Origin: a virus
Lineage: Duplodnaviria > Caudoviricetes
Strand: one strand, 5' to 3'
Virus record (IMG/VR): IMGVR_UViG_3300031851_000001
Length of the DNA stretch: 64,000 bases
Part shown: positions 23,387 to 43,418 of the stretch, piece after piece
Layout of the letters: each line of letters opens with the position of its first letter
Position numbering within the stretch: position 1 is the first letter of the stretch
Made by a program: the position numbers and the translations under genes
The notes under the pieces: model-generated
Databases searched by the model: none
The model's input: only the letters and a program-made list of their open reading frames with translations
What the model was told of the DNA's origin: nothing

Positions 23387-26300
23387 TTATTGACCTTTAA
23401 TTTGGTCAACCTCATCTTTTAAATCTTTGATAGCTTCAACTAACAGACCGACTAATGAGGCATATGCGACTGATTTAATCTTATCTTCAGTTTTATCTTC
23501 AATCACAACTTCAGGAATAACTCTTTCAACTTCCTGAGCAATTAAACCAATTTTTCTGGCATCAGGATTTGTTTTCTTGTTAAAATATACACCACGCAAG
23601 TCTGTAACTTTAGAAAGTGCGTTATCAACAGTAATAACATTTTCTTTAAGTCTTTCATCAGAGTTTGTAGTAATATCGCCTGTTGCAGTAAATTCTCCGG
23701 TTGTTGTATCAAAAGTAAATACCGCAGTACCGCCTGCTCTTTCTTCAATCCTAACTGATGTTACTGTAGTTGTATCAGCATCTAATAAGAATGCACCAGT
23801 ACCTGATTCCACACCAAGCTTCATTGCATTAGTAGTACCAAAACCAAAGTACGTATCATCAGGTAAGTTCATATCAGATGTAATACCTGTAAGATTGCCT
23901 GCGGTTAATGTACCACCAACAGTCATGTTACCAGCAGCATCAATGTTTTCAACACTAAGCTCATCATCTCCAGATGTATAGAAGAAGTTTTGTTCACCAC
24001 CTGGGTTAGGTCCTAACGTGGCCATCAACGGTCGTTGGTCTGCTCCAGCTTCAAAGAATGGAATGAATAACGCAGTATCCTGTAATGGAGATGTGTGAAT
24101 GTTTTGTAAGTTACCAACACCACCTTCGTTACCCGGTCCCTGAACACCTTGAGTACCTTGGAAACCGTAATCCCCTTGGAAGCCTGCAGTACCTTGATAA
24201 CCTTGAACACCGCCACCAATAGCACCTTGGAAACCTAAGTCACCTTGCATACCTTGTATACCTTGAACACCCTGTGCACCAAACCCGGTTGCACCTTGTA
24301 CACCTTGCCAACCATCAGCACCTTGAGTACCTTGGAAACCTTGTGTACCAGTTCCACCAACGCCACCTGAAATACCTTGTAAACCTTGCGATCCTTGGAA
24401 GCCTTCATAACCTTGAACACCACCTTCACCAGACTCACCTGAAATACCTTGTGGACCAGATGGACCATTGTCACCTTGTAAACCAGTATCACCGATACCT
24501 GCGGCACCTTGGAAACCTTGAACACCTTGTTGTCCTGAACCGTTTGGTCCTTGGAAACCTAATCCACCTTGGAAACCTTGGAAACCGTTACCACCTTGTG
24601 CACCTTGATTACCTTCACCTGCAGTACCTTGGTTACCGCCAAATCCTTGGAAACCCTCAGCTCCTTGGAAGCCTTGCATACCTTGTACACCTTGAGTACC
24701 AAATCCTATTGGACCTGTAATACCTTGTATACCTTGAGAAGCCTGAGGACCTTGAGTACCTTGGAAACCATCGTTACCTTGGAAACCTGCCGCACCCGGA
24801 GCACCAATACCTTGTGGACCTTGGAAACCCTGCATACCTTGGAAGCCATCGCCACCTTGTAAACCAAAGCTACCTTGTACACCTTGTGGTCCATCGCCAC
24901 CAACTTCACCTTCTTCACCTTGTTCACCATCAGTACCTTGTGGACCAGATGCTCCTTGGAAACCGGTAGCACCTTGAGCACCAACACCGTCTAAACCTTG
25001 AAGTCCTTGTAATCCTTGAGTACCTTGAGCACCAACTGTACCAATTCCACCGTCTAAACCTTGAATACCAGTATCACCTTGGATACCAGTAGTACCTTGT
25101 GAACCAGTGGCACCTAAGTCACCAGTTCTTGCGAAAGTAATTACAACATCAAGTCCATCAGTCATACTTGTAACTGAACCATTTACATATGAACATATTA
25201 TGTTAAAGTAACCTGCGACTTCCTGAACACTAGTGATAGTAAATACCGCAAAGTTTTCCGGAGCACCATTTTCAGATAACTTAAAGTGACCTTTGATAGG
25301 GCTTGTTGAGTCATCAATAGTTCTAAGGAATGGTTGAATGTCTGTAAAGTTATCATCTCTATCGTCCATATACAGGTTACCTGCAGAGTTAAACGATGCA
25401 TTATTGAACTTAAGTGTACCTACACCCGGATCTGATGTAGCAGTATTTGTGCTAAATGTGTAATCAAAAGTAACACCACCAAACGAACCTGTTTGACCTT
25501 GAACACCTGATCCACCTTGTAGACCATCAGTACCTTGAGTACCCTGCGGACCAACAAGTCCCGGCACACCTTGAACGCCTTGGAAACCTAAGTCACCTTG
25601 GAAGCCATCAGTACCTTGAATTGATTGTGGACCTTGCGTACCTTGGAAACCTAGTAATCCTTGAATACCCTGAATGCCTTGTATACCTTGAACACCCTGT
25701 GTACCTTGAGGACCAAGATCTGAAGTAACAATATCGCCACCCATTGCAGCATGTACTGTACACTGATAATAAAGCGATGCAGGAGCATCAAATGGTACTC
25801 GGAATATAATTAAACCGCTTGCTGACGCGTTACCTGTTACACCAGTATTATAAGCAGCTCCACCTTGGGCAACTCTAATTTCAAACGGGTGACCTGCTGC
25901 GCTTACATCAAAGATATAAGTAAATCCACGGATAAGGTGAATTGTTGGATCAGCTACACCATCAATTAAATAATCACTTGTGCCATTATTTGTTACAATA
26001 AATGTACGAGCACCTTCTTGACCTTGAATACCTTGAGCACCTTGGATACCAGTAGTACCTTGGATTGACTGTGGTCCTTGAGTACCTTGCAGCCCTTGTA
26101 GACCCTGTAAACCTTGTAATCCCTGTACGCCTTGTACACCTTGGGTACCAGCTTCGCCGCGTGGAACAAAGTTAATTAATGTTTTAGCAGGGTGTAATGT
26201 ATCAATAACATCTGTTTGCCAATTATTATTAGGCAAGCCATATGAACCAACATAAGTAACATCGAACCAACCAAATGTTTTTCCAGCGCCATCCCATGTA

Positions 26301-28087
26301 AAGTTTGTGAATTCGTATACAACTTGATGGTGACCACCCGGCCCATTACCATCGTCAAATGATTCAACAACAATTAAGCCTTTTGAACCTGACCCTTGTG
26401 GAATAGTTTGTAGCCAATCAAATACTTCATCAACATCGTTAGTGTAGTTATTTAAAGGAATATCGTCAAGTGTTAAAACAGTTGCTAACGAAACATCAGC
26501 GTTGTTTATTTTCCATTTACTAGTTCCTGGGAATGTAGAAGCAGTGTTATTATTAAGGAAATCCCACTCGTAAGTTAAACCACCATAATGTCCAACCGCA
26601 CCTTGAACTCCTTGTGTTCCCTGATCGCCTTGTGTACCTTGGTTACCTTGTAAACCAGCTCCACCTTGGACGCCTTGCACACCTTGAACAGATTGAGTAC
26701 CTTGTATACCTTGAACACCGGTTCCACCTTGTAGACCCTGTAAACCTTGAACACCTTGTACTGATTGAACACCTTGCAGCCCTTGTAGACCCTGTGTTCC
26801 TTGGCTACCTTGAATACCTTTTTGTCCTTGGATACCCTGCATACCAGTAGTACCTTGGATTGACTGTGGTCCTTGAATACCTTGGAAGCCTAAAATACCT
26901 TGAACGCCTTGGACACCTTGAGTTCCCTGTGGTCCTTGAATACCTTGGAAACCTCTGTCACCAGATATATTAAATGCAACCAATACTGGTAAACGCTGTG
27001 TTGTACCCGGAGTTGGTGTATCTAATTGAACAAAATCGCCCTTAACGCCTTCGCCTGCTACATAAGTAACATCTAATTGCCAATAACCTGTTTGGTCAGT
27101 AGCTGCCTGAACTGAGAATATAACATAATCATCAGGATTGTTGCGAAGAGTAATCTTCATATAAGCTTTGTTTGTAGAAGATGATGCGGCGATTGCTGTG
27201 TATAAACCTTCAAGATTTACACTATAGAATGCTTCATCATCAATCCAAATTCTTGTAACACCGGAAAAATCGTCTGCTGGATTAGCAGCGCCATTCATAA
27301 TCATTTCACCAGTAGTTGGATCTGCTTGTACTATTTCATCTTTAATTCTAAATTCTACTACATGACCGGCATCATCACCAGAAAAACCTTGAAAACCAAG
27401 ATCCCCTTGGATACCAGTAGTACCTTGAATAGATTGCGGTCCCTGTGTACCTTGGTTACCTAATAACCCTTGTACTCCTTGAGTTCCCTGAACTCCTTGG
27501 ACACCTTGAATTCCTTGAGTACCTTGTGGTCCTTGAACACCCTGTACGCCTTGGATACCATCAGCACCTTGAATACCTTGTGTACCTTGATAACCACGGA
27601 AACCACGTGAACCTTGAATACCTTCTTCACCAATAGTTCCTTGCACACCTTGTGTACCTTGGTTACCAATGAAACCTTGAACACCTCTAAACGATCCAAC
27701 GTTTACCCATACCGCACCATCATAAACCCATAACTCATCATCTGCGTTATCAATAACACCTTGACCAGTTGTAGCTGATGGGAATGCCGTATTAAGAGTT
27801 GCTTGCTGATCGCCACCTGTATCAACATCAGTAACAGAACCAATAACGTCAAAACCCGGTCCATATGTACCTTGTGTACCTTGTAAACCTGCATCGCCTT
27901 GTAAACCGGATGTACCTTGAACCCCTGCACCAACTGCGTTCCATGCTGTGCCATTAGAAACATAAATTAACCCGTCTGAACCATAAGCAATGGCTCCATT
28001 GTACGGGGCTGGATCTAATTGAATAGGTACTGCTTGCGGAGTACCCTGCCCAATTATTCGTGAACCGCTAATTGATTTGAAAGCCAT
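23387..28087 (-). CDS. Collagen-like tail fibre (1566 aa) with globular inserts and C-terminal peptidase S74 chaperone
   Basis: Long Gly-X-Gln triplet runs; C-terminal SDERLKENV...[13 protein letters not shown]...[16 protein letters not shown] is the S74 intramolecular chaperone signature. Confidence 0.88.
24140..27920 (-). repeat. Interrupted Gly-X-Y collagen-like repeats dominated by G-x-Q
   Basis: e.g. [23 protein letters not shown]. On the + strand this appears as recurrent ccttg/ccctg. Confidence 0.92.
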
Positions 28088-28509
28088 TATACATCATCCT
28101 CCTCGGATTGACCAAGTGTAAAGGATAAGGTAGCATCAACTGCGAGGTTTGTATCGCATTTGATTTCTAATAGATCGCCTGATCTAAAGAATTGACCGTT
28201 GAGTGGTAAAGGAACAGTATCATATGCTGGAATTTGTAAATTTCTAATAATCCAAAACTCTGCATTAATTTCTTCCCTGTGTGTTCTTACATCAACTGCT
28301 ACAGTATTTGCTGTAAAGTTACATAAGATAAGTGGCGAAATAACTTCACCAACACCGGGTTCTGTTGTAGTTGAACCACCGAAAACTAGTTCCGGAACTT
28401 CATAGTTTGGTACCTCAATCATTGTCTGCCAGTTCGTGGTCAATGTAAAGGACTTGGCGACCGGTTTAGCATCTGGCGCCTGGGATGTTGCGATTGTGTA
28501 TATAGCCAT
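28087..28509 (-). CDS. Hypothetical virion-associated protein (140 aa)
   Basis: Coupled at both ends by 1-nt overlaps. Beta-rich composition like small structural proteins. Confidence 0.6.
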
Positions 28510-31500
28510 TATAGAGATGCCCTACTGTTAGATGCACGTCGTGCAAGTTTTCTCACTGATGAAGTAAACGGACGACCTTCAATTCGACCTGTTCTACCGT
28601 TGATTTTGAGACCTCTTGCGAAGTACTGGTTGTTTAATTCGTCTGACCCTGACCATCTGATCCGGCCTCCGCCTTCTGACAATACAGAGGCATTAGCACC
28701 AATTGCGGCACCTACGTTTCTAAAGTTCAGCGGTAAGGCGTTTCTGTTAACACCTGCCGATGCACCGTTAAACTGGTGAGCAATAGATTCAACCAACGAA
28801 CCAAACGTTAAGAAGTTAGGTCTTATGACACTGTCTATGATAAGGTTATCTATCAATTCGGTTACCATGGTTCTATGATCTGCATCAGGAGCGATATTGT
28901 TATTTATATAAGTTTTCATTCTTGACCATGCGCCAGTGAACGAGTCAAGTAAATCTGTATTGTTAGCGCCTTCACTTATAATATTCCAAACGCCTGCACC
29001 GTTGTATACGTAAATGTTACCTACATAACGGTTAGCGCTAGGAGTAGTTGATACAATTCTTGCATCCCATTTCTTTGAAATAGAGTTTAAGGCAGCCAAT
29101 GCTGGAACATTGTCAACCGTACCTTTAAATCTTAACCTACGCCAATCAGCATATGCCTCTGGTGGATTAAATACTGGGAATACATGTTGAGCATCGATGT
29201 TAAACAACGCACCAACAAACGATCTTGAACCTTTATCAGAACCAACTGTACCAACAACTGGATCAATAACTCTACCTTTGAAATCGTTTTGTAGAACTTT
29301 AAGGAAGTTACCACCATCACGATATGTTTTAGGCAAGTCGATAAATTTGTATGTTGAAGTAATGTGACGTTGTACTTCACGCTGTAATTTAGTTCTGTTA
29401 TTAGATAAAATATCTTTAGCAAAGCTAAACTCTTTACTTTCTTCCCATGCAAAGTTAGGTTCAATTTTTGGACCAAGTGATTGAGGTGAGTCATAGAACA
29501 TTACGTTATGTAATATATCACCGAGTTCAATCGCTTGAGCTTCTTGAGTAGTTGTACCTAGCTCAGAACGAACAGCTTGATTTGGATGCTTACCAATAAC
29601 AACTTGACTTACGATTTTACCAAGTTGACGATATGCTTTCGCTGTCGCAACTCTTGTATCTTCTGGGATACGTAATTCGTTATTCCAATAATAGAAATCT
29701 GCATTCCATCTTGTAGCTAAGTTACCGCCATAGTTGAGATCCCAAGACATCGCATCAACGATATATCCAGCATCTCTGCGGCATTTAGCTTTAGAGTAAT
29801 CAATAATAGTGAATGTATCTTTAAGGAACTTAGTAACATCGTCAGCAAGTTCGTCAAGATTATCATCAATAATTTTTGAAGCTTCAATCTTAGTAGCGTT
29901 AACCCAAGAAGTGTCAGGCTCAACGATATCTGGTAGACCGTCAATATTATCTCTTCTGATTGCATCCTCTACGATACGAACTAAGTCAGCAACCTCTTCA
30001 CCTTCAACCGCGGTTGCTGGAGTGATTGATGTAGTATCTTGTGTTGTCCAAGTTCTAACCGCTTTCTTCAGTCCACCTTCAGTTGCACTTACGAATGTAT
30101 GAGCACCAGAATAAGTAGCTGCTGGTCCTACCCACATTGTTATTACGTTACCTTCAACGTAAAGGATTGGACAAGGAACATCGTAATATGGATGATGTGA
30201 CTCAGGTACCGCATGGTTAACTGGACCAGAACCAACATCACATGAGAATGTAAAGCTTTCAGGTTCAAACGATACGTAATCGCCAATTTCTAAACCGTGG
30301 TCAGCATCAATAGTTGCAGTGAAGTAACCTGTATCAGGATCGTATGTTGCACCAGTTGAAGTAAATCCTCTCTGATACGCTGTCTGACCTTGAACAACTG
30401 ACTTAACAACGCCGGCCATCTCTGTAAAGAACTCGGCGGTTTGTTGTCTTTGGTCTGCAGGTAATATTGAATGCGCGCCTTCGAAGTATAGACCTGCAGT
30501 CATTATCATTGCATAGTTTGTGGTATAGTTAACATCGTGTGATACGGCATCAATCATTACGCCAACATCTCTGCGGCATTTCTCTTTCGAGTATGATATA
30601 CCATTGTAAGCGTTACCAATATGTATTTGTAGATCTTTCGCCATTTGAATTGAATTATCGTCAATTACATTTTTAGCAGTCATCAATCCTGTTTCAATCC
30701 AAGAAGTATCTGGATCAATTCTTGATGGAATATTTGCTGGGCTATTATCATCAGCAACTTTTGCCAACATGGTTGCTAAGTTCATCGCTTCATCTGCGAT
30801 TGTGCGACGAGCAGCTCTGTGTTTAAACTCTTGTCTAACCGTGTTACCAGTTAGGTGAGTAATTGCATTCATTGTTGCGCTTACGAATGTATGAGCACCG
30901 CCACCTTTACCATATGGAACTTTACCAACATTCATAGTAATAGTTGTTCCAGTTCTTGCAGTGATTTTCATCGGTGCATTGTAATATGGATGATGTGCTT
31001 CTGGCGCAGGGTGGTTATGAACGTCGCCATCTAGAGCACATGTAAACACAATACTGTTTGGTGCGATCATAACGTAATCGCCAATTTTAAGATTGTGGTT
31101 TGCCATAGTAGCAGTAAATATGCCTGTATCAGGATCGTATGTGGCTGTTGTTGGTGTAAACTTGCGACCTTCTTTACGAGGTACTGTTTCATTGCGTGTT
31201 ACCCAACGAACTACTTTACCAAGATATTCAAATGCTTCTCTAGTTGATTGACGTTGGTCAATTGGTAGAATATTCACTGCATTCTTAAAGTAAAGTTCAG
31301 CAGTACCATGCATTGCAGAGTTACCACCATATTGAATATCGTGTGATATCGCATCAACAATATAACCTGTATCTCTTCGGCAACGATCCTCATCGTACTC
31401 AAGGTAACCAAAGTTATTTCTTAAGTATTGAGTAATAGTATCTTGTAGATTATCTTTACGTCCTGCGATAATTGTTGCAGATGGATCATATAGATAGTTT

Positions 31501-34500
31501 TCAGCACCTACAGTATTCGTAGGAATTTCAACAAGATCAGGCATATTGATTAAGGAGTCATCAGCAATTAAATCGCCAACGATTTTCCATAGTGATGTAA
31601 TGTGCTGTGCAATTGGAACAGTAACCACACCAAACGATGTATTTTGAGTAACGGTATTACCAGCTGATCTTGATACTGTTTGTTTCAGAACGATTTGACT
31701 TGCTACTGAACTTAAGTGAGTATATAATGCAGCGGTCGGTGCCCTTTGAGCAGTACTTAAAGTGGATAGACCATTTTCAAAATATAGTTTAGCAACATCA
31801 AGCATTGCTGTATTTGACTCGTGTTGTGTATCGTATGATACCGCGTCAACCATAATACCTGTGTCGCGTTTACATTTATTTACATCATATGATAATCCGC
31901 CATAGTTTGTATTAACCCAAGCTGTTGCTTCTTCTTTTAAGAATTCTCTGTTAAGTTGAAGCGCTTGACGAGCAAACACGTGGTTATCAGAAATTTGACC
32001 ATCACCGTAGTTATAGTTTGTACCATCTGGTGTGTAATCATTAATCATAGATGTAATAATGTTATTGAAGGAATCCTGAGCTCTAGTAAGTGCTACACCG
32101 GAAAGCTGTGCCTCGATGTCTTTTTGTACATATCTGATTCCTTCAATTGTTTCGGCAAGTTGGTCCTCAATAACCTTATCAGCACCTACAGTACCAATAC
32201 GATATGATTTACCGATATACTTACCATTGTATGTTGAACCTGTTTGAACATCTCTTCTAACCGCATCAATAATAAAGCCTGCATCTCTTGCGCATTTCGC
32301 TTCATCAAATGTGTAGTTATTATCTCGTACGAATTGAATAATCTCTTCTTGGATAAACGTTCTGTTCCATTGTAGAGATTTACGTGCGAATGTTCTAGCA
32401 GGATCCATTTTTGGTTTAGTTAGTAAGTTCTCTGTAGGCAATGCCTTAGGAGTTTTCTGACTAATATCTAATGAACCTCTGTAATCTGGAATTACTAATC
32501 TGTCATCAACAATATTCGCTATAACCATTGCTAGGTCAGATGCGATTGTTCCTGTTGCAGTATCAGCAGCTTGAAGTGATACATCTTGGTATAGGATGTT
32601 ACCATCAATTTCTGAAATCGCGTCAGTTAAAGCAGATACGAATGTATGAGCTCCGGTATATGCTCCAGCATTTCCAACCCACATAGTAATCGTTGTTGCA
32701 TCAGCACCAATAATTGGGCATGCTCTGTTATAGAAGCGATGATGTGCTTCAGGGCTTGCATGGTTAGTTGGTCCTGATCCTGTATCACAAGAGAACGTAA
32801 TTGCACTTGGTTTGAACCAAACGTAATCGTCTGTTGTTAATGAGTGAGTACCAATGGTAGCAACCATAATACCTGTAACAGGATCGTATGTTGCGCCAGT
32901 TGGAGTAAATCTTGCTCCAAAGATTGGTTCTTGAACTTCGTTCTTAACAACTTTTTCCATTACACTCGCTAGGTGAGTAAATGCTAGTCTTGTTGGTTCT
33001 CTCTGATATTGTGGTAATACGTTAATAGCACCTTCAAAGTAGTATCTTGCATTGAATATTGTAGCAGAGTCTCCGCCATATTCTAAGTCTTCTGAGATCG
33101 CGTCAACAATGTAACCTGTATCTCTTGGACATTTCTCTAGGCTGTACGCTAGGCCGTTATATTGTTCTGAAATATACTCGTTGATTTCAGTTTGGTATTT
33201 AACAGCTTGACCTTTGATTGCTTCAAACTCTGCACCTAATGTATAGTTTGCAGTGAAAGTATCAAACGCTGGTTCTACGATAGCAGGAATTGTGCCATCA
33301 TTTTCTCTGATAACACCACCAACATCTGCGAATAATTTTTCAGCATGTTGAGCAACTGCAGGTTTAATAGATCTTCTAACACCGTCAGCTAATGCGCTTA
33401 CGAATGAATGTACCTTATCAACTCTAGCTTCACCAACTTGTAATGTAATAGTTGTTGGAGTAACTGAGTCAATTCTAACTGGTTTGTTGTAGATTGGATC
33501 AGTTGGTCTAGGATGCGATATGTTAATTGGTGTGGCATCAGTTGGTGATGTTGGGCAAGATAGTGTAATCGCGTTCTCTGCAAAGATTACATAATCCTTT
33601 TCAGTAAACGAGTGAGTACCCAATGTCATTGTCATAACGCCAGTATTATGATCGTATGCAACGTCTGTTGGTGTATAAGCCTCTGCCATATTTGCTACAT
33701 TCACTGCATCAGCAGTAACCGATACAAATGTATGTACAGTTTGTGGCTCATGTTTGATTGCATTAGCGGTTGCACTTACGAATGTATGTACTGAACCACT
33801 TGCGCTTCCTGCATCACCTACGTTAAATGTCATTGTACCAGTTTGGCGTCTGATTGAATTAGCAGTTGCTGATACGAATATATGAGCACCATTATATGGA
33901 GATGGTCCAACATTTAATTTGAATGTATCAGTTGTAACATCTGAAATTTCTAACCAACGATTAGATGCAAAATCAGTTGCCCTTGGATAACCTTTTTCAA
34001 CCGTGTTACCATCAAGTACGCATGTATATGTTAACCCGTAATCAGCAATCATTACATAATCGCCATTACTAAATCCGTGATTAGCAACTGTGATTGTTGT
34101 ATCTCCACTTGCTGGGCTATGAACCGCGTTTGTTGGCGTATGTTGTGTTTCACCTACTGCAGTAATTGATAATGATTTGCCAGTTAATGGATCTCCAACT
34201 CTTGGATATGTATGCTGAGTTGCGTTACCATCTTGATCGCATGTGAATGTAAACGAGTTATTTTCTAGAACAACACCGTTTCCAACTCTTAATCCATGTT
34301 GACCAACATTAACTATCATTACACCAGTTGCCGCATCATAGTTAGCAGATGTTGGTGTAAAGTATTTGTTAGGGCCAGAGGCTGCAGCGTCTAGTGTAAC
34401 TGTGTTTGCACTTACATCTTTAACCAAATATGTTTTTAATGCGTATGGATCAAGTCCTGCACGAGGATATGTTTTAGCAGCATCATCACCGTCCATTGCA

Positions 34501-37500
34501 CAAGTGAATGTGAATGAATTTGGTTCCAATGTAACTCTATCATTAAGTGCAATGCTGTGTCCCGGCATAGTCATTACGAAATCGCCATTAGCAGGATCGT
34601 AAGATGCAGTTGTTGGTGTGTATGTTGTTGTTTCAACAATAGTTTGAGTTACCGCAACTTGTAGTGGAGTAACAACTTCGTTTCTAACAATTTGACCAAC
34701 TAAATCTGATGCGAAGAAGAATGCTTCCGATGTTGGAACAATTTCTTCATCATCTAATACTGGAATTGCATTTTCAAAATATAGTTTAGAGTTTGTTGCG
34801 CTTAACGCGTTTGAACCGTTTTGTACATCCCAAGCGATGAGGTCAACAAAGATACCCATATCTCTTTCGCATGCAACAGTGTTATATACAAAGTTTGGAT
34901 AGTTGGCTGTAATCCACGCAATGATTTCTTTTTGGATAAACGCTTTGTTAGTAAATATTGCTTTACCTGCTTGACGATGTTCTGGTGATATTGTTAAGTC
35001 ACCGTATATTGGTGCATCAGCGCCAGCAATACCGTTTGACATAATATCAATAACAGTATCAAAGGCAGCATTGGATCTTGTGATCGCTGTTGCATCAGTT
35101 AATACGTCAGTTGCGATTTTACCTTTGAGCCAAGTGATAGCACCAACAGTTTGAGTTAACTGTTCGTTAATTACCGCATTAGCACCTACAGTACCAATTG
35201 TGTAACCTTTACCTACATAGTAAGCGTTAACAGTTGAGTCAGTTAGAATATCTCTAGCAACCGCATCTAAAATTAAACCTGTATCTCTAGAACATTTAGC
35301 GTTGTCATAGACGAAGTAGTTATTTTCCATCCATAGTTTAACTTCGTTCTGAAGATATGATTTGTTTTTCTGTAGAATACGAGAAGCGTATGTACCTTGT
35401 TCTTTTGCACCAACCTGTACAACCGCACCTTCATCAGCACTTACGAATGTATGTGGATCAGTGTTAGTTCCTGCATTTCCGCAGTTTACTGTGATTGTGT
35501 TTGTTGTCACTGCACTAATTTCTAATGGTAATTGATAAGCCTTATCACCAATACGTGGTGAGTAATCAGTACCACCGCCATTATGAGCACAGCTGAATGC
35601 AAAGCTTAATGGTTGTAATTCAATATGATCGCCGAGACCCATACCGTGGTCAGTAATAGTAATAACCATCTCGCCACTTACTGGGTCGTATGTAGCTGTT
35701 TCTGGTGTAAAGGCTTTAATAACTCTAGCAGAGTCTGAGAAGAATAATGCGTTTGAGTCGATTGAGTCTGGGGTTGCCGATACGAATGTATGGTTGTTTG
35801 CATGCCCACCAGCATTACCAACATTAACAGTAATTGTGTCTGATGTTGTTCCAGTAACTCTTACCGGTTCTTTATATGCAGGGTGGTCATTTAGTGGTGA
35901 AAGGTCTGTACCTGTTATACCACCAACATCACAACTAAATACCATTGACTCAGGTGCGATTTGGATCCATTTACCAACCGGTAAATCGTGTTTCCCAATA
36001 GTAATTTCTAACTCACCAGTTACTGGGCTATATGTAGCTGTCTGAGGAGTAAATTTACCAGTCCACATTCCTGCTTCACGTATTGCATTAGTAGTTGCTG
36101 ATACGAAAGTATGTGCCGATGTATCACTTGACTCACCAACATTAACAGTAATTGTTGTTGAAGTTCTTGCAGAGATTGTAACTGGCTTTTTATATGCAGG
36201 GTGCATTTTTTCAGCTTGGATACAATTATCAGATGCACTTACGAATGTATGAGCACCGCCGCCATCAACAATTCCACCTACATTCATATAGATTTTTGTT
36301 GCGTCAACTTTTTCAATAGTGATTTGTTTCTTATAGAAAGGGTGATGTGATTCTGGCGCAGGGTGGTTTGTTACATCACCATCAAGTGCGCAAGTAAAGA
36401 TAATTGAACTTGGTTTAAATTCAACCTTATCACCAACCTTCAGCGTATGTGCACCAATAGTTGCGCTAAACTCACCAGTTGCCACATCGTATGAAGCGTC
36501 TGTTGGAGTAAAGTTTAAGAATTGAGTAGCAGGATAAGCATGCTTTGTTGCATTGCCATCAAGTGCACATGTAAATACTAAACTATGTGGTTCAATATAA
36601 ATTTCATCGCCAATGTTAAAGTCATTAGAACCAATCGTCATAACAACTGAACCTGTTGCAGGGTCATATACAGCGTTAGTTGGTGTATATTTTTTACCGT
36701 TGTTATTTAGTAATCTTGACATTTCATCAAAAGAAGCATTTGATCTATCAATAGCAATTGAGTTATCACCAATAAATGTGGCAGCCCTTGCTTTTAAATA
36801 ATCAATAGAACCAACAGTTTGTTCTAACTGTTCAGTAACACTTACCTCACCAGATTTAGTACGGTAAGCAGCGCCAGTTTGAATTGCATTATAGTTTGTA
36901 CCAAGGATTAAGTCACGTTGTACTGCAGGTAAAATATATTCTTCAGTATCTCTGTGGCATTTTTTGCTATCGTAGAAATACCATTCGTTATCTGCCCATT
37001 CCATCATGTAGTCTTGGATATATTCTTTATTTGCTTGTAGCATTTTACGTGCGTTACGTTTATCTACAGATATACCAGAGTTATCAGAATATGTCAATAG
37101 TTGTCCGATAACTGATACTGCATTATCTTTAGCTTCAACAAATCTATGTTCGAAGTTAGCAGCCGTCAGTCCTGGGTTAACCGTGATAGTCTTAGCTGAC
37201 ACAGCAACGATTGGAAGCGCAGCCAAGTAAGCTTTTTCTGATTTGCGTGGATGGCTAATTTTTGTTTTAAAGTTATCACTTGAACATGTGAATGTAAATG
37301 ATTCTTCAGCAAGGTTAACATATCGGCCAACAGTTAAATCGTGTGTACCGATAGTGATAACCATCATACCAGTTGTTGGGTCGTACGTAGCCTTAGTTGG
37401 TGTATATTTGTCGCCTGAGTTTGCAATCGTATCAATAACGTTATTAAATGCAGAGTAAGCCGATGTAGCTGCTGGTGCAGAGTTGGCTTGAATTAATTCG

Positions 37501-40500
37501 TCAGTTGTTTTGCGTAATCTCTTAAACGAAGCGATTGTTTCGTTGCGTTGGTTTTCAAGGCTTGTTCTTGCAGTGTTAACATAATATGCTAATCCAGCGT
37601 TTTCAGAATTATAATTTGTATCTAACAACATGTCGTATTTAACGGCAGGTAAGATATATTCCTGAACATCGCGCTCACACTTAACACTATCGTAAGCATA
37701 GAACTCGTCGTTATTGTCGATCCAATCAACAAAATCATTAATGATTAAATCTCTGTTAGATTGAACAAGTTCTCTAGCAGCCGTTTGGTCAGACTTACCA
37801 GTATCTGAGAAGATAATTGGTTCAGCCGCAGCCTCGCCATTTTGTAAAATGTTAAGAGTTTCATCAAGTGATGTGTTAATTCTGTTCGTTAACTCAGAAG
37901 ATGCGTTTGCAAAAATACCACCTGCTGAGCTGGCGATAGAGTCTTTAAGATGGTTAATAGAACCAACAGTTTCAGTTAATTGCTCATCAACTACAAGATA
38001 TGAAATTGGTGAACGGTATGAAATACCATTTAACCGACCCCAGTAGTTACCTTTTGTAGCAATATCGTAACCAGTGTTATCAACGATAATTCCTGTATCA
38101 CGGAAACATTTATCAGCATTATAACCTTGATAACCCAAACCACCAGACGCAGTGTTTGATGTCAAGTAGTAAACCATATCATCAACAATTTCGTCTGCCT
38201 TTTCTGTCAATACGTCTGCGAATGCAGAGTTAGCAATCAAGTTACTTTGATTTGCCTCGGCTGGTCGAATAATAACAGTTGAACCACGAGCACGCATTGA
38301 AATGTCACCGAACTGAGAACCTGAGTTGTTCAAAGTCATTTGACCACCATCTAAGGCGAAGAACGCTTGGCGTGTAAAGATTGATAATGAACCAATACCG
38401 TTAACACCAGCACCGTTTTTAGCAACGTATCCTGTACCATTTTGAGTACGAGGTGTAAAACCAAAACATAATACGTATGTATATAGTGAGTCGGTATCAA
38501 GTTGTGCTCTGTCTGCTAATAGACAACCGCCGCCTCGACCAACTAATCTGTTAGGGAAATCATCAATACCAATTGACTCGATAGTACCTGAACCACCACG
38601 TTGTGCGTATAGAACATCTCCAACTTCAACGTTGCCTTTTAGGTTACGAACATAAATTTGTCTGTTTGCATCAATATCATCGATGTATGATACATAACCT
38701 GTTGCACCGCTTGAGAATGTTACCTCATCGTCAACTTCGAATTGAGATTGCGCAGAGTGACCTGCTACTAAATAGAATTCTTGACCTAAATCAAGGATGG
38801 TACCTTTAGAGTTAAATGGATTTAACGGAGGTTCAACATCAAGTCTATTAAAGTTTGAAAGCTGAGTAGAGTCACGAAGATATGGTGAACGTCTTAGTAG
38901 AGCACCCGGTCTGTAAGCGATAGCAAAACCACCTTCAGGTTGGTCAAAGTTATCAACTTCAAAGTTCATATATGAGAAACCTTGTACATAACAACCAGAT
39001 CCAACAAGAACACCATTTGTTCTTTCGTATCCTTTTTTCTTTTGAATAACAGTAGCATACTGACCAGCGGTTGATGTCATGGAACAATCATCAGGTAGCA
39101 TAATTGGTTCATCAACATAGTAAGTACCGGGACCTACTGAAATGTGAACAGCATCATTAATTGCGTTACGGTTATATGATCCACCAGCTTTTTCTAAAGC
39201 GATTTGTTCAGCACGCTTTAGCGTACGAACTGGCTGTAAAATAGTTCCTGGGTATTTGTCGTCACCATCTGAAGCAACATGTACTTTAAGTGATTTTTCT
39301 GTTTTCTTAGAAAATTCTTGATACAACTGACGATAAGTCATTTTCTCTGTATCGCCAGTCTTGACGTTTTTCAGAGCAAAGTAACTATCTTCATCAAGCA
39401 TTGGCTCAAATTGTTTAGTAATGTTCATATCAAAGTCGACAAAAGTACTTTCTTCGATTGTCGAATTAGATACCACACCGTCTTTAAATTCTGAGTTTTC
39501 AATAACAGATTTTTGTTGGCCAAGTCCTTCAGTAGATGAACTTGTGATAGTCATATTCTGAGCAGTTACATTATCCAAAGTACCTTGGAATGACGAGTCA
39601 GTAATAACGTTATTAGCAAGTGTACCATCTTGGATTGTAGTATTAGTAAATACGTTATTATTACCAGTACCATCAGAGAAATCTGAGTTTGTAATGCTAG
39701 TATTATTAGCAGTGCTATCGTTAAGTTGTGAATTCGTAATAACGATATTGTTCGCTGTTGAGTCAATGATAGATGAGTTACTTGTTACAGTATCCCAAAT
39801 CAGACCATTAGCAAATCTTGAGTTTGTAATTGTTACGTTATCTAAATCAGTATCACGGATATCGGAATTAGAAATATCTGTATCAACGATAGTAACATTT
39901 GATACTGCAGTGTCTCTAATTGTACCATTGCTAAAGTCAGTAGTAATAATTACTGAGTTTGACATTAATGCATCTTCGAGAACAATTTCGTCAATCGTAA
40001 TATTAGTAAGGATTAAGCCATTCGCTGTACCTTGTTCAATAGCAACGTTCGCAAAGGATGAGTTATCAACTTGCGAATTAGTAAAGATATTATTATTGCC
40101 GGTTCCATTAGAAAAATCGGATTGGTCAATCGCCATGTTATTGGCAGAACTATTAAGGATTGTTGAGTCGTCAATAGTTGAATTAGTTAAAACAACATTG
40201 TTACCAGTACCATCATTAAACTCAGAATCAGTAATTACTGAATTCGTAATAACAAAGTTATTAGCATCAGAGTCTCTTAGATCTAATTCAGTACCAAAGC
40301 TTCCAAGTAAGGAACCGCCAGAGAATACAGAGTCGTTTATTTCAACATCATTGAGAGTTGAAACCGACATAATGACGTTTGAAATAGTTCCGCCAGTAAT
40401 TTTAATATTGTTGAAAATCTCGAATTGTAACGCTTGAACCAGTTCTTTACGTGTGATGTTCTTTGTACCATCATCACCTTGGATCAAGTTAACAATAACG

Positions 40501-40562
40501 AAAAGATCCTCAGATCTTGTATTGGCGCCTGTTATCGGACCGAGTTCTGAAATCAATGACAT
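28509..40562 (-). CDS. Giant virion structural protein (4017 aa): N-terminal beta-helix-like repeats, pectate-lyase-like region, CxRD helical repeats and TPT.A.YDP beta repeats
   Basis: Uninterrupted 12-kb ORF downstream of a late promoter. N-terminal 5-residue N/S..I..S periodicity; HVASDGDD...PVRTLKRA followed by V..GPGTY; two repeat families. Confidence 0.85.
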   Translation of the reverse strand: MSLISELGPITGANTRSEDLFVIVNLIQGDDGTKNITRKELVQALQFEIFNNIKITGGTISNVIMSVSTLNDVEINDSVFSGGSLLGSFGTELDLRDSDANNFVITNSVITDSEFNDGTGNNVVLTNSTIDDSTILNSSANNMAIDQSDFSNGTGNNNIFTNSQVDNSSFANVAIEQGTANGLILTNITIDEIVLEDALMSNSVIITTDFSNGTIRDTAVSNVTIVDTDISNSDIRDTDLDNVTITNSRFANGLIWDTVTSNSSIIDSTANNIVITNSQLNDSTANNTSITNSDFSDGTGNNNVFTNTTIQDGTLANNVITDSSFQGTLDNVTAQNMTITSSSTEGLGQQKSVIENSEFKDGVVSNSTIEESTFVDFDMNITKQFEPMLDEDSYFALKNVKTGDTEKMTYRQLYQEFSKKTEKSLKVHVASDGDDKYPGTILQPVRTLKRAEQIALEKAGGSYNRNAINDAVHISVGPGTYYVDEPIMLPDDCSMTSTAGQYATVIQKKKGYERTNGVLVGSGCYVQGFSYMNFEVDNFDQPEGGFAIAYRPGALLRRSPYLRDSTQLSNFNRLDVEPPLNPFNSKGTILDLGQEFYLVAGHSAQSQFEVDDEVTFSSGATGYVSYIDDIDANRQIYVRNLKGNVEVGDVLYAQRGGSGTIESIGIDDFPNRLVGRGGGCLLADRAQLDTDSLYTYVLCFGFTPRTQNGTGYVAKNGAGVNGIGSLSIFTRQAFFALDGGQMTLNNSGSQFGDISMRARGSTVIIRPAEANQSNLIANSAFADVLTEKADEIVDDMVYYLTSNTASGGLGYQGYNADKCFRDTGIIVDNTGYDIATKGNYWGRLNGISYRSPISYLVVDEQLTETVGSINHLKDSIASSAGGIFANASSELTNRINTSLDETLNILQNGEAAAEPIIFSDTGKSDQTAARELVQSNRDLIINDFVDWIDNNDEFYAYDSVKCERDVQEYILPAVKYDMLLDTNYNSENAGLAYYVNTARTSLENQRNETIASFKRLRKTTDELIQANSAPAATSAYSAFNNVIDTIANSGDKYTPTKATYDPTTGMMVITIGTHDLTVGRYVNLAEESFTFTCSSDNFKTKISHPRKSEKAYLAALPIVAVSAKTITVNPGLTAANFEHRFVEAKDNAVSVIGQLLTYSDNSGISVDKRNARKMLQANKEYIQDYMMEWADNEWYFYDSKKCHRDTEEYILPAVQRDLILGTNYNAIQTGAAYRTKSGEVSVTEQLEQTVGSIDYLKARAATFIGDNSIAIDRSNASFDEMSRLLNNNGKKYTPTNAVYDPATGSVVMTIGSNDFNIGDEIYIEPHSLVFTCALDGNATKHAYPATQFLNFTPTDASYDVATGEFSATIGAHTLKVGDKVEFKPSSIIFTCALDGDVTNHPAPESHHPFYKKQITIEKVDATKIYMNVGGIVDGGGAHTFVSASDNCIQAEKMHPAYKKPVTISARTSTTITVNVGESSDTSAHTFVSATTNAIREAGMWTGKFTPQTATYSPVTGELEITIGKHDLPVGKWIQIAPESMVFSCDVGGITGTDLSPLNDHPAYKEPVRVTGTTSDTITVNVGNAGGHANNHTFVSATPDSIDSNALFFSDSARVIKAFTPETATYDPVSGEMVITITDHGMGLGDHIELQPLSFAFSCAHNGGGTDYSPRIGDKAYQLPLEISAVTTNTITVNCGNAGTNTDPHTFVSADEGAVVQVGAKEQGTYASRILQKNKSYLQNEVKLWMENNYFVYDNAKCSRDTGLILDAVARDILTDSTVNAYYVGKGYTIGTVGANAVINEQLTQTVGAITWLKGKIATDVLTDATAITRSNAAFDTVIDIMSNGIAGADAPIYGDLTISPEHRQAGKAIFTNKAFIQKEIIAWITANYPNFVYNTVACERDMGIFVDLIAWDVQNGSNALSATNSKLYFENAIPVLDDEEIVPTSEAFFFASDLVGQIVRNEVVTPLQVAVTQTIVETTTYTPTTASYDPANGDFVMTMPGHSIALNDRVTLEPNSFTFTCAMDGDDAAKTYPRAGLDPYALKTYLVKDVSANTVTLDAAASGPNKYFTPTSANYDAATGVMIVNVGQHGLRVGNGVVLENNSFTFTCDQDGNATQHTYPRVGDPLTGKSLSITAVGETQHTPTNAVHSPASGDTTITVANHGFSNGDYVMIADYGLTYTCVLDGNTVEKGYPRATDFASNRWLEISDVTTDTFKLNVGPSPYNGAHIFVSATANSIRRQTGTMTFNVGDAGSASGSVHTFVSATANAIKHEPQTVHTFVSVTADAVNVANMAEAYTPTDVAYDHNTGVMTMTLGTHSFTEKDYVIFAENAITLSCPTSPTDATPINISHPRPTDPIYNKPVRIDSVTPTTITLQVGEARVDKVHSFVSALADGVRRSIKPAVAQHAEKLFADVGGVIRENDGTIPAIVEPAFDTFTANYTLGAEFEAIKGQAVKYQTEINEYISEQYNGLAYSLEKCPRDTGYIVDAISEDLEYGGDSATIFNARYYFEGAINVLPQYQREPTRLAFTHLASVMEKVVKNEVQEPIFGARFTPTGATYDPVTGIMVATIGTHSLTTDDYVWFKPSAITFSCDTGSGPTNHASPEAHHRFYNRACPIIGADATTITMWVGNAGAYTGAHTFVSALTDAISEIDGNILYQDVSLQAADTATGTIASDLAMVIANIVDDRLVIPDYRGSLDISQKTPKALPTENLLTKPKMDPARTFARKSLQWNRTFIQEEIIQFVRDNNYTFDEAKCARDAGFIIDAVRRDVQTGSTYNGKYIGKSYRIGTVGADKVIEDQLAETIEGIRYVQKDIEAQLSGVALTRAQDSFNNIITSMINDYTPDGTNYNYGDGQISDNHVFARQALQLNREFLKEEATAWVNTNYGGLSYDVNKCKRDTGIMVDAVSYDTQHESNTAMLDVAKLYFENGLSTLSTAQRAPTAALYTHLSSVASQIVLKQTVSRSAGNTVTQNTSFGVVTVPIAQHITSLWKIVGDLIADDSLINMPDLVEIPTNTVGAENYLYDPSATIIAGRKDNLQDTITQYLRNNFGYLEYDEDRCRRDTGYIVDAISHDIQYGGNSAMHGTAELYFKNAVNILPIDQRQSTREAFEYLGKVVRWVTRNETVPRKEGRKFTPTTATYDPDTGIFTATMANHNLKIGDYVMIAPNSIVFTCALDGDVHNHPAPEAHHPYYNAPMKITARTGTTITMNVGKVPYGKGGGAHTFVSATMNAITHLTGNTVRQEFKHRAARRTIADEAMNLATMLAKVADDNSPANIPSRIDPDTSWIETGLMTAKNVIDDNSIQMAKDLQIHIGNAYNGISYSKEKCRRDVGVMIDAVSHDVNYTTNYAMIMTAGLYFEGAHSILPADQRQQTAEFFTEMAGVVKSVVQGQTAYQRGFTSTGATYDPDTGYFTATIDADHGLEIGDYVSFEPESFTFSCDVGSGPVNHAVPESHHPYYDVPCPILYVEGNVITMWVGPAATYSGAHTFVSATEGGLKKAVRTWTTQDTTSITPATAVEGEEVADLVRIVEDAIRRDNIDGLPDIVEPDTSWVNATKIEASKIIDDNLDELADDVTKFLKDTFTIIDYSKAKCRRDAGYIVDAMSWDLNYGGNLATRWNADFYYWNNELRIPEDTRVATAKAYRQLGKIVSQVVIGKHPNQAVRSELGTTTQEAQAIELGDILHNVMFYDSPQSLGPKIEPNFAWEESKEFSFAKDILSNNRTKLQREVQRHITSTYKFIDLPKTYRDGGNFLKVLQNDFKGRVIDPVVGTVGSDKGSRSFVGALFNIDAQHVFPVFNPPEAYADWRRLRFKGTVDNVPALAALNSISKKWDARIVSTTPSANRYVGNIYVYNGAGVWNIISEGANNTDLLDSFTGAWSRMKTYINNNIAPDADHRTMVTELIDNLIIDSVIRPNFLTFGSLVESIAHQFNGASAGVNRNALPLNFRNVGAAIGANASVLSEGGGRIRWSGSDELNNQYFARGLKINGRTGRIEGRPFTSSVRKLARRASNSRASL
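29740..38115 (-). repeat. 11 copies of Y...KCxRDxG(Y/I/L)(I/L/M)(V/I)DA...D...G motif
   Basis: KCFRD, KCERD, KCHRD, KCSRD, ACERD, KCPRD, KCARD, KCKRD, RCRRD, KCRRD and KCRRD, counted in the translation. Confidence 0.9.
30080..37410 (-). repeat. ~12 copies of a ~100-aa beta module (TPT.A.YDP.TG...TIG.H....GD....F(T/S)C..D....H..P...TIT.NVG....HTFVSA)
   Basis: Counted in the translation. Some copies are truncated or nested. Confidence 0.88.
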
Positions 40563-42245: not shown

Positions 42246-43418
42246 TTACTTTCCTACTTTTTCGTTCAATTCCTTGATAGCTTCAATTAACAAACCAATT
42301 ACATTACCGTGTCTGACCGCAAAGATTGCCTCGCCAGTGTCTGGGTCCGTTGTTTCATAAACAGCTTCAGGTAAAACTTCCATAAGTTCTTGTGCCATAA
42401 CGCCGGTCATTGGTTCGTCAGGTTTTGATATATAGTTAAATGTATAACCACCAAGTTGTGAAACTTTATCTAAGGCATTATTAATTGGTTCAATATTTTC
42501 TTTTTGTCTTTTGTCTGAAACAGTACCAAAACCGGTAACTTCACCTGTTGAGAAAACTGATGCAAAAGTAACATTAGAGTTTGTAGCAACAGTTTGACCA
42601 ATTTCAATAAGGCCGGATGTTGTGTTATATGTTACGCCAGTACCACCAGACAATGCAGCCCGTACTCTTGCTGTAGTATAATAAAGATTGTCATCGCCTT
42701 CGGTTAAACTATCTGTATCGTGGTTTGTTAATGAACTAACTGTACCAATAACGTTACCTGTAAATGTAGCAGGAATTCCAGCCTGACCACTTTCAAGCAC
42801 CTTATTTGATACCCCACTATCGTCTACTTTATATACGTCACCTACTAAGTTACCTGTTAAAGTTCCACTAAAGTCATCTGCAGTAACACTATTTGCTGAC
42901 ATATCAACGGCTGTGATATCGTTAACAGTTAAATCGCCGGTAACTGTCATATCCTCAGTTACATTAAAATTAATTACGCTTAACGTACCAGCTGGCGTTA
43001 AAGATAGCTTTGGCGTACCTGTTCCTGTATCAATATTAAAATTAGCATCATCTGAATTATCAATACCAACATCCCAAGATATTGTACCATCAGTATATCT
43101 TGTTTGACCACCGCCTGCGCCATATGAAAATGTAGCTACTACCTGATCGCTTGCGCCGATAATATTTAAAGGTGAATTAAATGTTACTGGAGCACTTGCA
43201 GTGAAAGATGTAATTGTGTCTGCTTCAAATAACGTATCAGCAATTAATGTATTAGCTTGAAGATCTCCAGCTAAATTTACATCGCCTGTAGTTAAATCAC
43301 CGGAAACGGTTGCTGTGACAACTTGCTCACGCATAAGATCAACCATTTCATTGGTCTTATCAAACCAATTTTGAAACGTCTGAGTAGTCGTAATGTTTTG
43401 AATATTTGTTTTTGCCAT
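42246..43418 (-). CDS. Short tail fibre (390 aa) with C-terminal peptidase S74 chaperone
   Basis: N-terminal TF..W..KTN motif; C-terminal SDKRQKENI...GVMAQEL..VLPEAV...LLIEAIKEL. Confidence 0.82.
   Translation of the reverse strand: MAKTNIQNITTTQTFQNWFDKTNEMVDLMREQVVTATVSGDLTTGDVNLAGDLQANTLIADTLFEADTITSFTASAPVTFNSPLNIIGASDQVVATFSYGAGGGQTRYTDGTISWDVGIDNSDDANFNIDTGTGTPKLSLTPAGTLSVINFNVTEDMTVTGDLTVNDITAVDMSANSVTADDFSGTLTGNLVGDVYKVDDSGVSNKVLESGQAGIPATFTGNVIGTVSSLTNHDTDSLTEGDDNLYYTTARVRAALSGGTGVTYNTTSGLIEIGQTVATNSNVTFASVFSTGEVTGFGTVSDKRQKENIEPINNALDKVSQLGGYTFNYISKPDEPMTGVMAQELMEVLPEAVYETTDPDTGEAIFAVRHGNVIGLLIEAIKELNEKVGK

Follow-up and report, generated by a model that had tools for sequence, protein, structure and literature searches.

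Introduction

The question raised by this locus is why a very large phage protein should repeat, many times over, the short motif that carries the pigment in light-harvesting proteins. The locus lies in the window, i.e., the whole stretch of 64,000 nucleotides analysed here, from a tailed virus (Duplodnaviria; Caudoviricetes; IMG/VR record IMGVR_UViG_3300031851_000001). On its minus strand, an open reading frame (ORF) encodes a protein of 4017 amino acids (aa) in which the motif Cys-x-Arg-Asp (C-x-R-D, or CXRD) recurs. According to the consulted part of Rockwell et al. (2023, PMC10151467), the Cys of this motif is the covalent bilin attachment site of phycobiliproteins. The phycobiliprotein family is known from antenna proteins and, since 2023, from bilin-binding globins of cells; its occurrence as tandem arrays in virion fibres is a new setting. 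A first reading of the sequence (the original prediction) had proposed tandem globin- or phycobiliprotein-like domains. This proposal is now backed by sequence profiles, by profile-profile comparison with controls and by the predicted fold, and the modules can be assigned with high confidence, within the globin fold, to the branch of phycobiliproteins and bilin-binding globins.

The CXRD motif and the helical units

The 4017-aa protein contains exactly eleven C-x-R-D motifs (positions in Table 1), the number originally predicted. The number expected by chance from the composition is 0.089, and 2000 shuffles of the protein gave a mean of 0.08 and a maximum of 2. The ends of the Cys codons run from 38108 down to 29783, consistent with the span 29740-38115 first given for the repeats, and the three peptides quoted with it are found in units 9, 11 and 7. 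A spacing of 140-165 aa had been announced for uninterrupted neighbours, which are indeed 143, 141, 140 and 164 aa apart; the remaining motif-to-motif spacings are 240-580 aa.

Each motif lies inside a helical unit of about 140 aa. Three successively deeper profiles of the unit were used, i.e., A1, A2 and A3, the last being an alignment of 150 rows. The original prediction missed a twelfth, degenerate unit, of which A3 gives a partial match at 29337-29423 (full extent in Table 1); Cys-less copies of this kind recur in homologues. No unit was found outside the giant ORF in a six-frame scan of the window.

Two types of unit can be distinguished. In type A (units 1-4 and 7), the helices are contiguous in the alignments and the unit ends with a helix like ..AFDxVIDIMxNG. 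In type B (units 5, 6 and 8-11), the motif helix is followed by Y-G-G-N, and every unit leads to one further helix and a P-x-I-x-E-P linker. This further helix comes directly after units 8 and 11, and after at least one beta domain in units 5, 6, 9 and 10. Since it lies beyond the beta domains, the latter are placed between the last two helices, i.e., they appear to be inserted between helix G and the last helix of the type B unit.

Sequence relationship with phycobiliproteins

Among Pfam families, only PF00502 (Phycobilisome protein) is matched repeatedly. Its score over the entire 4017-aa protein is 20.0 bits (E 7e-4), residues 928-1044 being aligned on profile positions 41-153 of 155. The family matches 10 of 91 diverse units at E<=0.1 (3 for the next family) and, among the matches listed, it is precomputed on 29 of 120 full-length homologues. 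The giant ORF of a related 100-kb contig reaches 24.9 bits, above the curated cut-off.

Against PDB sequences, phycobiliproteins represent 15 of the 17 matches of A1, 18 of the 20 matches of A2 and 16 of the 17 matches of A3, and the best E-value improves with profile depth (0.034, 0.0082 and 0.003, respectively). A single unit has no match in PDB by phmmer; the relationship is thus remote and visible to profiles only. When A3 is compared by hhalign with an alignment of 143 distinct phycobiliprotein ORFs from 80 cyanobacterial loci, the score is 38.9 (probability 82%, P 1e-5, 104 columns), against 12.2 for the reversed template and 8.6-15.1 for 15 column shuffles. The G-helix region has a weak recurrent match to a type IV pilin (4bhr_A, E 0.011-0.016), which covers only about 50 residues and was judged spurious.

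The motif had been said to occupy the place of the attachment site and to align without gaps as far as G-G. Both statements hold: the HMMER alignment to phycocyanin alpha is free of gaps from K-C-x-R-D to G-G, and Cys falls on Cys in the hhalign and PDB profile alignments. All 11 intact units carry CXRD aligned on the phycocyanin attachment Cys. In phycobiliproteins, the Arg and Asp of the motif contact the chromophore.

Predicted fold

The verification by AlphaFold and Foldseek suggested with the original prediction was carried out on units 7 and 9; a globin-type fold is predicted, and the best matches of unit 7 are phycobiliproteins. Model 2 (m9079ba82287c) is the complete type A unit 7, built on 150 sequences, with a predicted local distance difference test score (pLDDT) of 80.4. 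It has six helices, the Cys being near the start of the third long one. Among 48,161 chains compared by VIA-align, the first is the ApcE bilin domain (Z 15.2, root-mean-square deviation (rmsd) 3.4 over 122 residues). The first ten ranks also include allophycocyanin (14.6), phycobilisome/ApcE chains (13.9-13.4), phycoerythrins (13.2 and 13.0) and photocobilins (13.1 and 11.6). Globin-coupled sensors are found at 11.2-8.3 and haemoglobins at about 6-7.5. With Foldseek, all 50 rows listed are phycobiliproteins (probability 1.00, template modelling (TM) score 0.56-0.66, rmsd 2.1-5.6 Å, identity 14-23%); they include smURFP, which is taken here to be derived from allophycocyanin. The predicted fold is thus globin-like, with helices in the phycobiliprotein arrangement (B, E, F, G, H).

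Model 1 (md4067e4f1b81) is the type B unit 9 without its last helix in cis, built on 91 sequences (pLDDT 76.1). Phycocyanin alpha chains have the highest Foldseek probability (0.8). By VIA-align on the same 48,161 chains, allophycocyanin comes first (rmsd 3.6 over 111 residues), followed by photocobilin, phycobilisome chains, phycoerythrin, ApcE and globin sensors. The better scores of model 2 cannot be attributed to the additional helix alone, for the unit and the alignment depth differ too.

The X-Y hairpin mediates alpha-beta pairing in phycobiliproteins. The alignments of the units start at phycobiliprotein chain residues ~20-37, so that the units are devoid of this N-terminal hairpin; moreover, it would not fit within a centre-to-centre distance of 140-165 aa. 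An ESM Atlas pointer to a «gp6-like N-terminal helical domain» (PF21379, score 0.81, below trust level) is supported neither by Pfam nor by the fold searches.

Several values weigh against a phycobiliprotein relationship: (i) the 20.0 bits of the 4017-aa protein are below the Pfam cut-off of 22.2 for PF00502, which matches only 1 of the 11 units scanned singly; (ii) model 1 has no Foldseek match at E<=1e-3, its TM scores with phycocyanin alpha chains are only 0.37-0.41 and its best VIA-align Z is low (9.0); (iii) the Foldseek E-values of model 2 are 0.017-0.07, none reaching 1e-3. It could be argued that the resemblance is convergent or fortuitous, i.e., that a generic helical bundle happens to carry C-x-R-D, inasmuch as all the sequence E-values (those of PDB and Pfam given above) are marginal and models of helical proteins frequently score Z 8-14 against folds unrelated to them. 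This explanation is nevertheless very improbable: four independent lines agree on one family, phycobiliproteins outrank all other globins, the hhalign score is far above its 16 controls, a relative passes the curated Pfam cut-off and the motif aligns residue for residue.

Conservation and distribution of the units

A search of 1.84 billion proteins with the unit profile retrieved 1393 representative proteins at E<=1e-3, of which 558 reach E<=1e-30, with up to 37 matched unit stretches per protein. From 267 proteins, 3004 motif-spanning units were collected: C.RD is found in 2871 and C..D in 2927. In A3, whose mean column identity is 22%, the invariant columns are C46, D49 and D60, and those conserved at 90% or more are Y41, R48, Y76 and T94. 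All these residues are polar; the set is thus unlike a purely structural core, and the near-invariant CXRD argues for a working pocket.

The survey of the host range of homologues proposed with the original prediction was made on cultured phages. One helical unit compared by tblastn with 50,697 phage records gave 42 matches, exclusively in phages of Synechococcus (40) and Prochlorococcus (2). A query of 1002 residues including beta domains matched 337 phage records, all named Synechococcus, Cyanophage, Prochlorococcus or «Marine». The units of S-WAM2, S-PM2 and P-HM2 read K-C-x-R-D. In S-PM2 (AJ630128.1), 16 tRNA features are annotated inside the coding sequence S-PM2p218 (163075-175410); an uninterrupted frame of 3792 aa that matches the unit runs through this stretch, and the tRNA coordinates look stale or misplaced.

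The region itself has no megablast match in the 50,697 phage records. The gp6-like baseplate wedge protein of the window (56487-58289, minus strand) shares 40% identity with those of Sinorhizobium phages phiN3 and phiM12, 35% with that of Caulobacter phage Cr30 and 31-34% with those of cyanophages; in a gp6 tree, the window phage is on a long branch outside 18 cyanophages. Because this protein is closer to alphaproteobacterial phages than to cyanophages, the host of the window phage may not be a cyanobacterium. The gene psbA, found in 0 of 5 related contigs, gives no clue to the host.

Ligand of the conserved cysteine

CXRD marks bilin binding in phycobiliproteins and in two bilin biosynthesis-associated globins (BBAGs), BBAG-1 and BBAG-3, and is therefore a good predictor within the clade. 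The latter two are globins of heterotrophic bacteria which possess CXRD and load bilins without a lyase, as described in the part of PMC10151467 that was consulted. The organisation of the chain is as follows. After a pentapeptide-repeat N-terminus come eleven intact modules and a decayed one, of about 140 aa each. In the predicted fold, a module has helices E, F, G and H preceded by an A/B helix, without X-Y hairpin, and CXRD is borne by helix E where phycobiliproteins attach the bilin. Since Cys, Asp and one further Asp alone are invariant at ~22% identity, each module would keep a working ligand pocket, the ligand being most likely a bilin linked by a thioether to the CXRD Cys. The loss of Cys in decayed unit 12 was counted in favour of a functional pocket. 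Attachment would occur by itself, as in BBAG-1/3, or via a lyase where the phage encodes one. The fibre would then be a chromoprotein and, judging from the motif, the virus particle may carry a bile pigment. Taken as a whole, bilin attachment to the CXRD Cys included, this proposal is plausible and falls a little short of an even chance.

A structural role is nearly as likely as a loaded module and must be taken seriously, even if it is itself tentative. A phycobiliprotein-like globin would have been acquired and then repeated to serve as a stiff helical bead in long fibres, without ligand, C-x-R-D, D60, Y76 and T94 being kept as an internal network of hydrogen bonds and packing. The number of modules (up to 37 in a fibre-type protein), their alternation with beta domains and the lack of the X-Y hairpin all fit such a bead. 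So do the failure to find bilin genes in most unit-bearing contigs and the fact that no report of pigmented phage particles was found in the literature, subscription journals being thinly covered. On the other hand, packing alone hardly accounts for the persistence of a single Cys in 97% of 3004 units whose mean identity is ~22%, the conserved residues are polar, and it is precisely the Cys that the decayed copy has lost.

The Cys could also serve another chemistry. It could be joined to the Asp at i+3 by a thioether formed by a radical S-adenosylmethionine (radical-SAM) enzyme, pair in a disulfide with another unit or chain, or belong to a metal site. The formation of Cys-Asp thioethers is a known reaction of radical-SAM enzymes, homologues of the neighbouring radical-SAM genes exist in the closest contigs, and Cys and Asp are precisely the invariant pair. 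As a general explanation, radical-SAM cross-linking was rejected: only 4 of 30 unit-bearing records contain the family, which was found neither in the complete genomes of P-SSM4 and S-WAM2 nor in contig G005, which is 93% complete. As for the disulfide, there is one Cys per unit, and many arrays are devoid of beta domains that could supply a partner; as for the metal, D60 is 11 residues from D49 on the same helix, probably too far for a single ion. Such chemistry is thus improbable.

The gene content of the carriers gives bilin attachment, the preferred reading, less help than might be hoped, and several observations speak against it. No bilin gene is present in the 64-kb window, CpeT is found in 0 of the 5 related contigs tested, and the host of the window phage may not make bilins. 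A HemO-FDBR cassette is present in only 2 of 28 unit-bearing IMG/VR contigs (at least 50 kb). These two include the only one of the 28 that is at least 90% complete; the remaining contigs are 14-72% complete, so that the absence of bilin genes there says little. A clustering of the BBAG type is seen neither in the window nor in the two positive contigs, where HemO-FDBR lies away from the fibre gene. The two-gene cassettes are located at 269196-270384 in contig G005 and at 729-1857 in contig G025, both of which encode unit-bearing fibre proteins.

Of 18 complete cyanomyovirus genomes, 15 contain units and 13 contain CpeT. The two coincide in 13 genomes; S-ShM2 and P-SSM7 contain units without CpeT, P-SSM2, S-SM2 and S-SSM7 contain neither, and no genome has CpeT without units. 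The association (Fisher one-sided p = 0.012, 18 genomes) was not retained as support, the three genomes with neither forming one clade in the gp6 tree (support 95/94). In S-PM2, S-WAM2, S-RSM4 and Syn1, cpeT is directly upstream of the giant unit gene on the same strand; these four also form one clade (100/100). Each of the two cpeT patterns thus amounts to about one evolutionary event. FDBR is found in 7 of the 18 genomes, without relation to the units.

Two details on cpeT itself can be added. The gene is 1.3-1.5 kb upstream of the giant unit gene in S-PM2 (AJ630128; locus positions 878-1405 vs. 2854 onward) and in S-WAM2 (locus positions 692-1216 vs. 2503 onward). In P-SSM4 (NC_006884.2, 16642-17064), an ORF of 148 aa matches Pfam CpeT above the cut-off; in the consulted part of a 2010 review, cpeT is given as not found in this phage (PMC2984593).

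Possible role of a pigmented fibre

For a pigment on the virion, light sensing for adsorption is the most attractive guess. The virion would expose a bilin-loaded fibre that serves the phage as a light sensor of its own, a proposition which must be regarded as unlikely for the moment. If true, it would give a molecular basis to the light-dependent adsorption of cyanomyoviruses. In the consulted part of PMC6628666 (citing Jia et al. 2010), the light-dependent adsorption of P-HM1, P-HM2 and S-PM2 is ascribed to light-sensitive receptors and/or tail fibres. Unit counts are 4 for P-HM1, 4 for P-HM2 and 9 for S-PM2, all three of which reportedly fail to adsorb in the dark, and 0 for P-SSM2, which adsorbs in the dark; this fit is anecdotal, with two or three independent lineages only. 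The other role considered at the outset, i.e., a mimicry of antenna proteins, receives no support: the units have no X-Y hairpin, they are located in a fibre, and gp6 of the window phage is closer to alphaproteobacterial phages.

If the CXRD site is loaded, phage particles carry pigment, and two old puzzles become testable with cultured phages: (i) the presence of cpeT and bilin-synthesis genes in phages even when the host has no phycobilisome; (ii) the light dependence of adsorption in some cyanophages. Concerning the first, the role of these genes is described as unresolved in the consulted parts of PMC3037559, PMC2984593 and PMC11480375; a chromoprotein fibre would be the missing substrate for phage cpeT and for ho1, pebS, pcyA and pcyX. 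If the site is empty, the modules clearly exemplify the re-use, in the construction of a virus fibre, of a light-harvesting fold of host type. The carriers include the model cyanophages S-PM2, P-HM2 and Syn9.

The giant protein and its gene neighbourhood

Among PHROG families, the giant ORF best matches phrog_5342 «tail fiber protein» (E 2.5e-181), together with phrog_701 «virion structural protein» (E 6.4e-162). In the window, where every gene is on the minus strand, the genes form a baseplate and tail-fibre block of T4-like type; PHROG matches of the gp6, gp25, gp5 and gp9/10 kind are found there, as well as a collagen-like fibre and several giant ORFs. In cyanophages, the homologues bear the annotation of tail fibre or structural protein; in the GenBank records opened, no other annotation is given and the globin domain is not mentioned. 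The product is thus a fibre or baseplate protein of an uncultured T4-like marine myovirus, its location in the virion being deduced from gene context and annotation.

Between an N-terminal region and a C-terminal domain, the helical units alternate with beta-rich repeats (Table 1). PF13599 scores 54.4 bits (cut-off 38) when residues 1-399 are scanned alone and 34.9 bits in the whole protein. Residues 400-770 have no family match. The best PDB match of the C-terminal domain is weak (9k3a_A, a cyanophage A4 tail protein, E 0.044). The beta-rich repeat is about 100 aa long and is present in at least 10 copies (ten F[TS]C copies were listed); it matches no Pfam family at E 1e-3. Its conserved Cys and His could form a metal site.

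Three other proteins of the window deserve mention. A protein of 855 aa encoded in the baseplate block (50660-53227, minus strand) has a subtilase domain (PF00082, E 2.7e-24). Two fibre proteins (23387-28087 and 42246-43418, both minus strand) end in the intramolecular chaperone domain Peptidase_S74, and the former has in addition a long collagen-repeat region.

Table 1. Features of the giant ORF, with their coordinates in the window.
Feature	Coordinates	Strand	Remarks
Giant ORF, tail-fibre-type / virion structural protein	28509..40562	(-)	4017 aa, 4017 codons
N-terminal pentapeptide-repeat region, residues 1-399	39366..40562	(-)	PF13599
Globin unit 1, Cys819, C-F-R-D, type A	37830..38225	(-)	A3 E 4.3e-27; PF00502 E 0.012 scanned alone
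Globin unit 2, Cys962, C-E-R-D, type A	37416..37790	(-)	A3 E 2.5e-33; PF00502 at residues 928-1044
Globin unit 3, Cys1202, C-H-R-D, type A	36696..37064	(-)	A3 E 4.4e-32
Globin unit 4, Cys1757, C-S-R-D, type A	35028..35393	(-)	A3 E 3e-32
Globin unit 5, Cys1898, C-E-R-D, type B	34632..34979	(-)	A3 E 2e-32
Globin unit 6, Cys2478, C-P-R-D, type B	32928..33221	(-)	A3 E 9.1e-29
Globin unit 7, Cys2757, K-C-A-R-D, type A	32034..32396	(-)	A3 E 1.1e-31; model 2
Globin unit 8, Cys2897, C-K-R-D, type B, last helix contiguous	31557..31985	(-)	A3 E 9.3e-41
Globin unit 9, Cys3061, R-C-R-R-D, type B	31098..31478	(-)	A3 E 1.5e-33; model 1
Globin unit 10, Cys3329, C-R-R-D, type B	30360..30680	(-)	A3 E 1.8e-30
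Globin unit 11, Cys3594, K-C-R-R-D, type B	29490..29891	(-)	A3 E 2.9e-33
Degenerate unit 12, residues 3710-3760, T-Y-R-D replacing C-x-R-D	29283..29435	(-)	A1 E 0.0014
Beta-rich insert domain, example copy	30828..31136	(-)	FTPTxATYDPxTG ... F[TS]C..DG...H.P ... HTFVSA
Beta-domain blocks	~37095-37376, 35430-36662, 33396-34583, 32571-32879, 30828-31136, 30036-30338	(-)	boundaries read from translation
C-terminal domain, residues 3761-4017	28512..29282	(-)	no match in Pfam scan

Comparison with known systems

In the literature searched, in which subscription journals were thinly covered, no description of phycobiliprotein-like domains in structural proteins of phages was found. The known systems that can be compared with the phage units are cellular proteins on the one hand and the homologues of cultured cyanophages on the other hand.

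Phycobiliproteins (PF00502, i.e., phycocyanin, allophycocyanin and phycoerythrin) and the bilin domain of ApcE have the same globin-type helix topology as that predicted for the units and are their best structural matches. They are also the only family found by the sequence profiles of the unit, and in both cases K-C-x-R-D is on helix E at the position of Cys-84. The phage units differ by the lack of the X-Y hairpin, by a shorter B-E loop and by residues of their own (D60, Y76 and T94, invariant or conserved) which are outside the signal common to phycobiliproteins. They form tandem arrays among beta domains in a single chain of 4017 aa, whereas phycobiliproteins belong to the thylakoid antenna and not to a virion fibre.

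Photocobilins or photoglobins (8j2w, 8j2y) have a globin-type bilin-binding domain which matches the unit model at Z 13.1 and 11.6. Unlike the phage units, they are fused to a B12 domain and are cellular photoreceptors. The BBAG-2/photoglobin lineage is described as devoid of CXRD in the consulted part of PMC10151467.

BBAG-1 and BBAG-3 resemble the phage units in being phycobiliprotein paralogues outside the antenna which carry CXRD, a likeness drawn from the published descriptions of BBAGs. BBAGs are cellular proteins made of one domain, and their genes cluster with those of heme oxygenase and FDBR, in contrast with the phage units, whose window has no such genes.

Lastly, the giant proteins of cultured T4-like cyanophages, named «gp7», «short tail fibre» or «virion structural» (S-PM2 p218, S-WAM2 gp224, P-HM2 gp7, and those of Syn9 and S-RSM4, among others), contain the same unit family. 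The identity is only 25-35%, and they differ from the 4017-aa protein in the number and order of the units.

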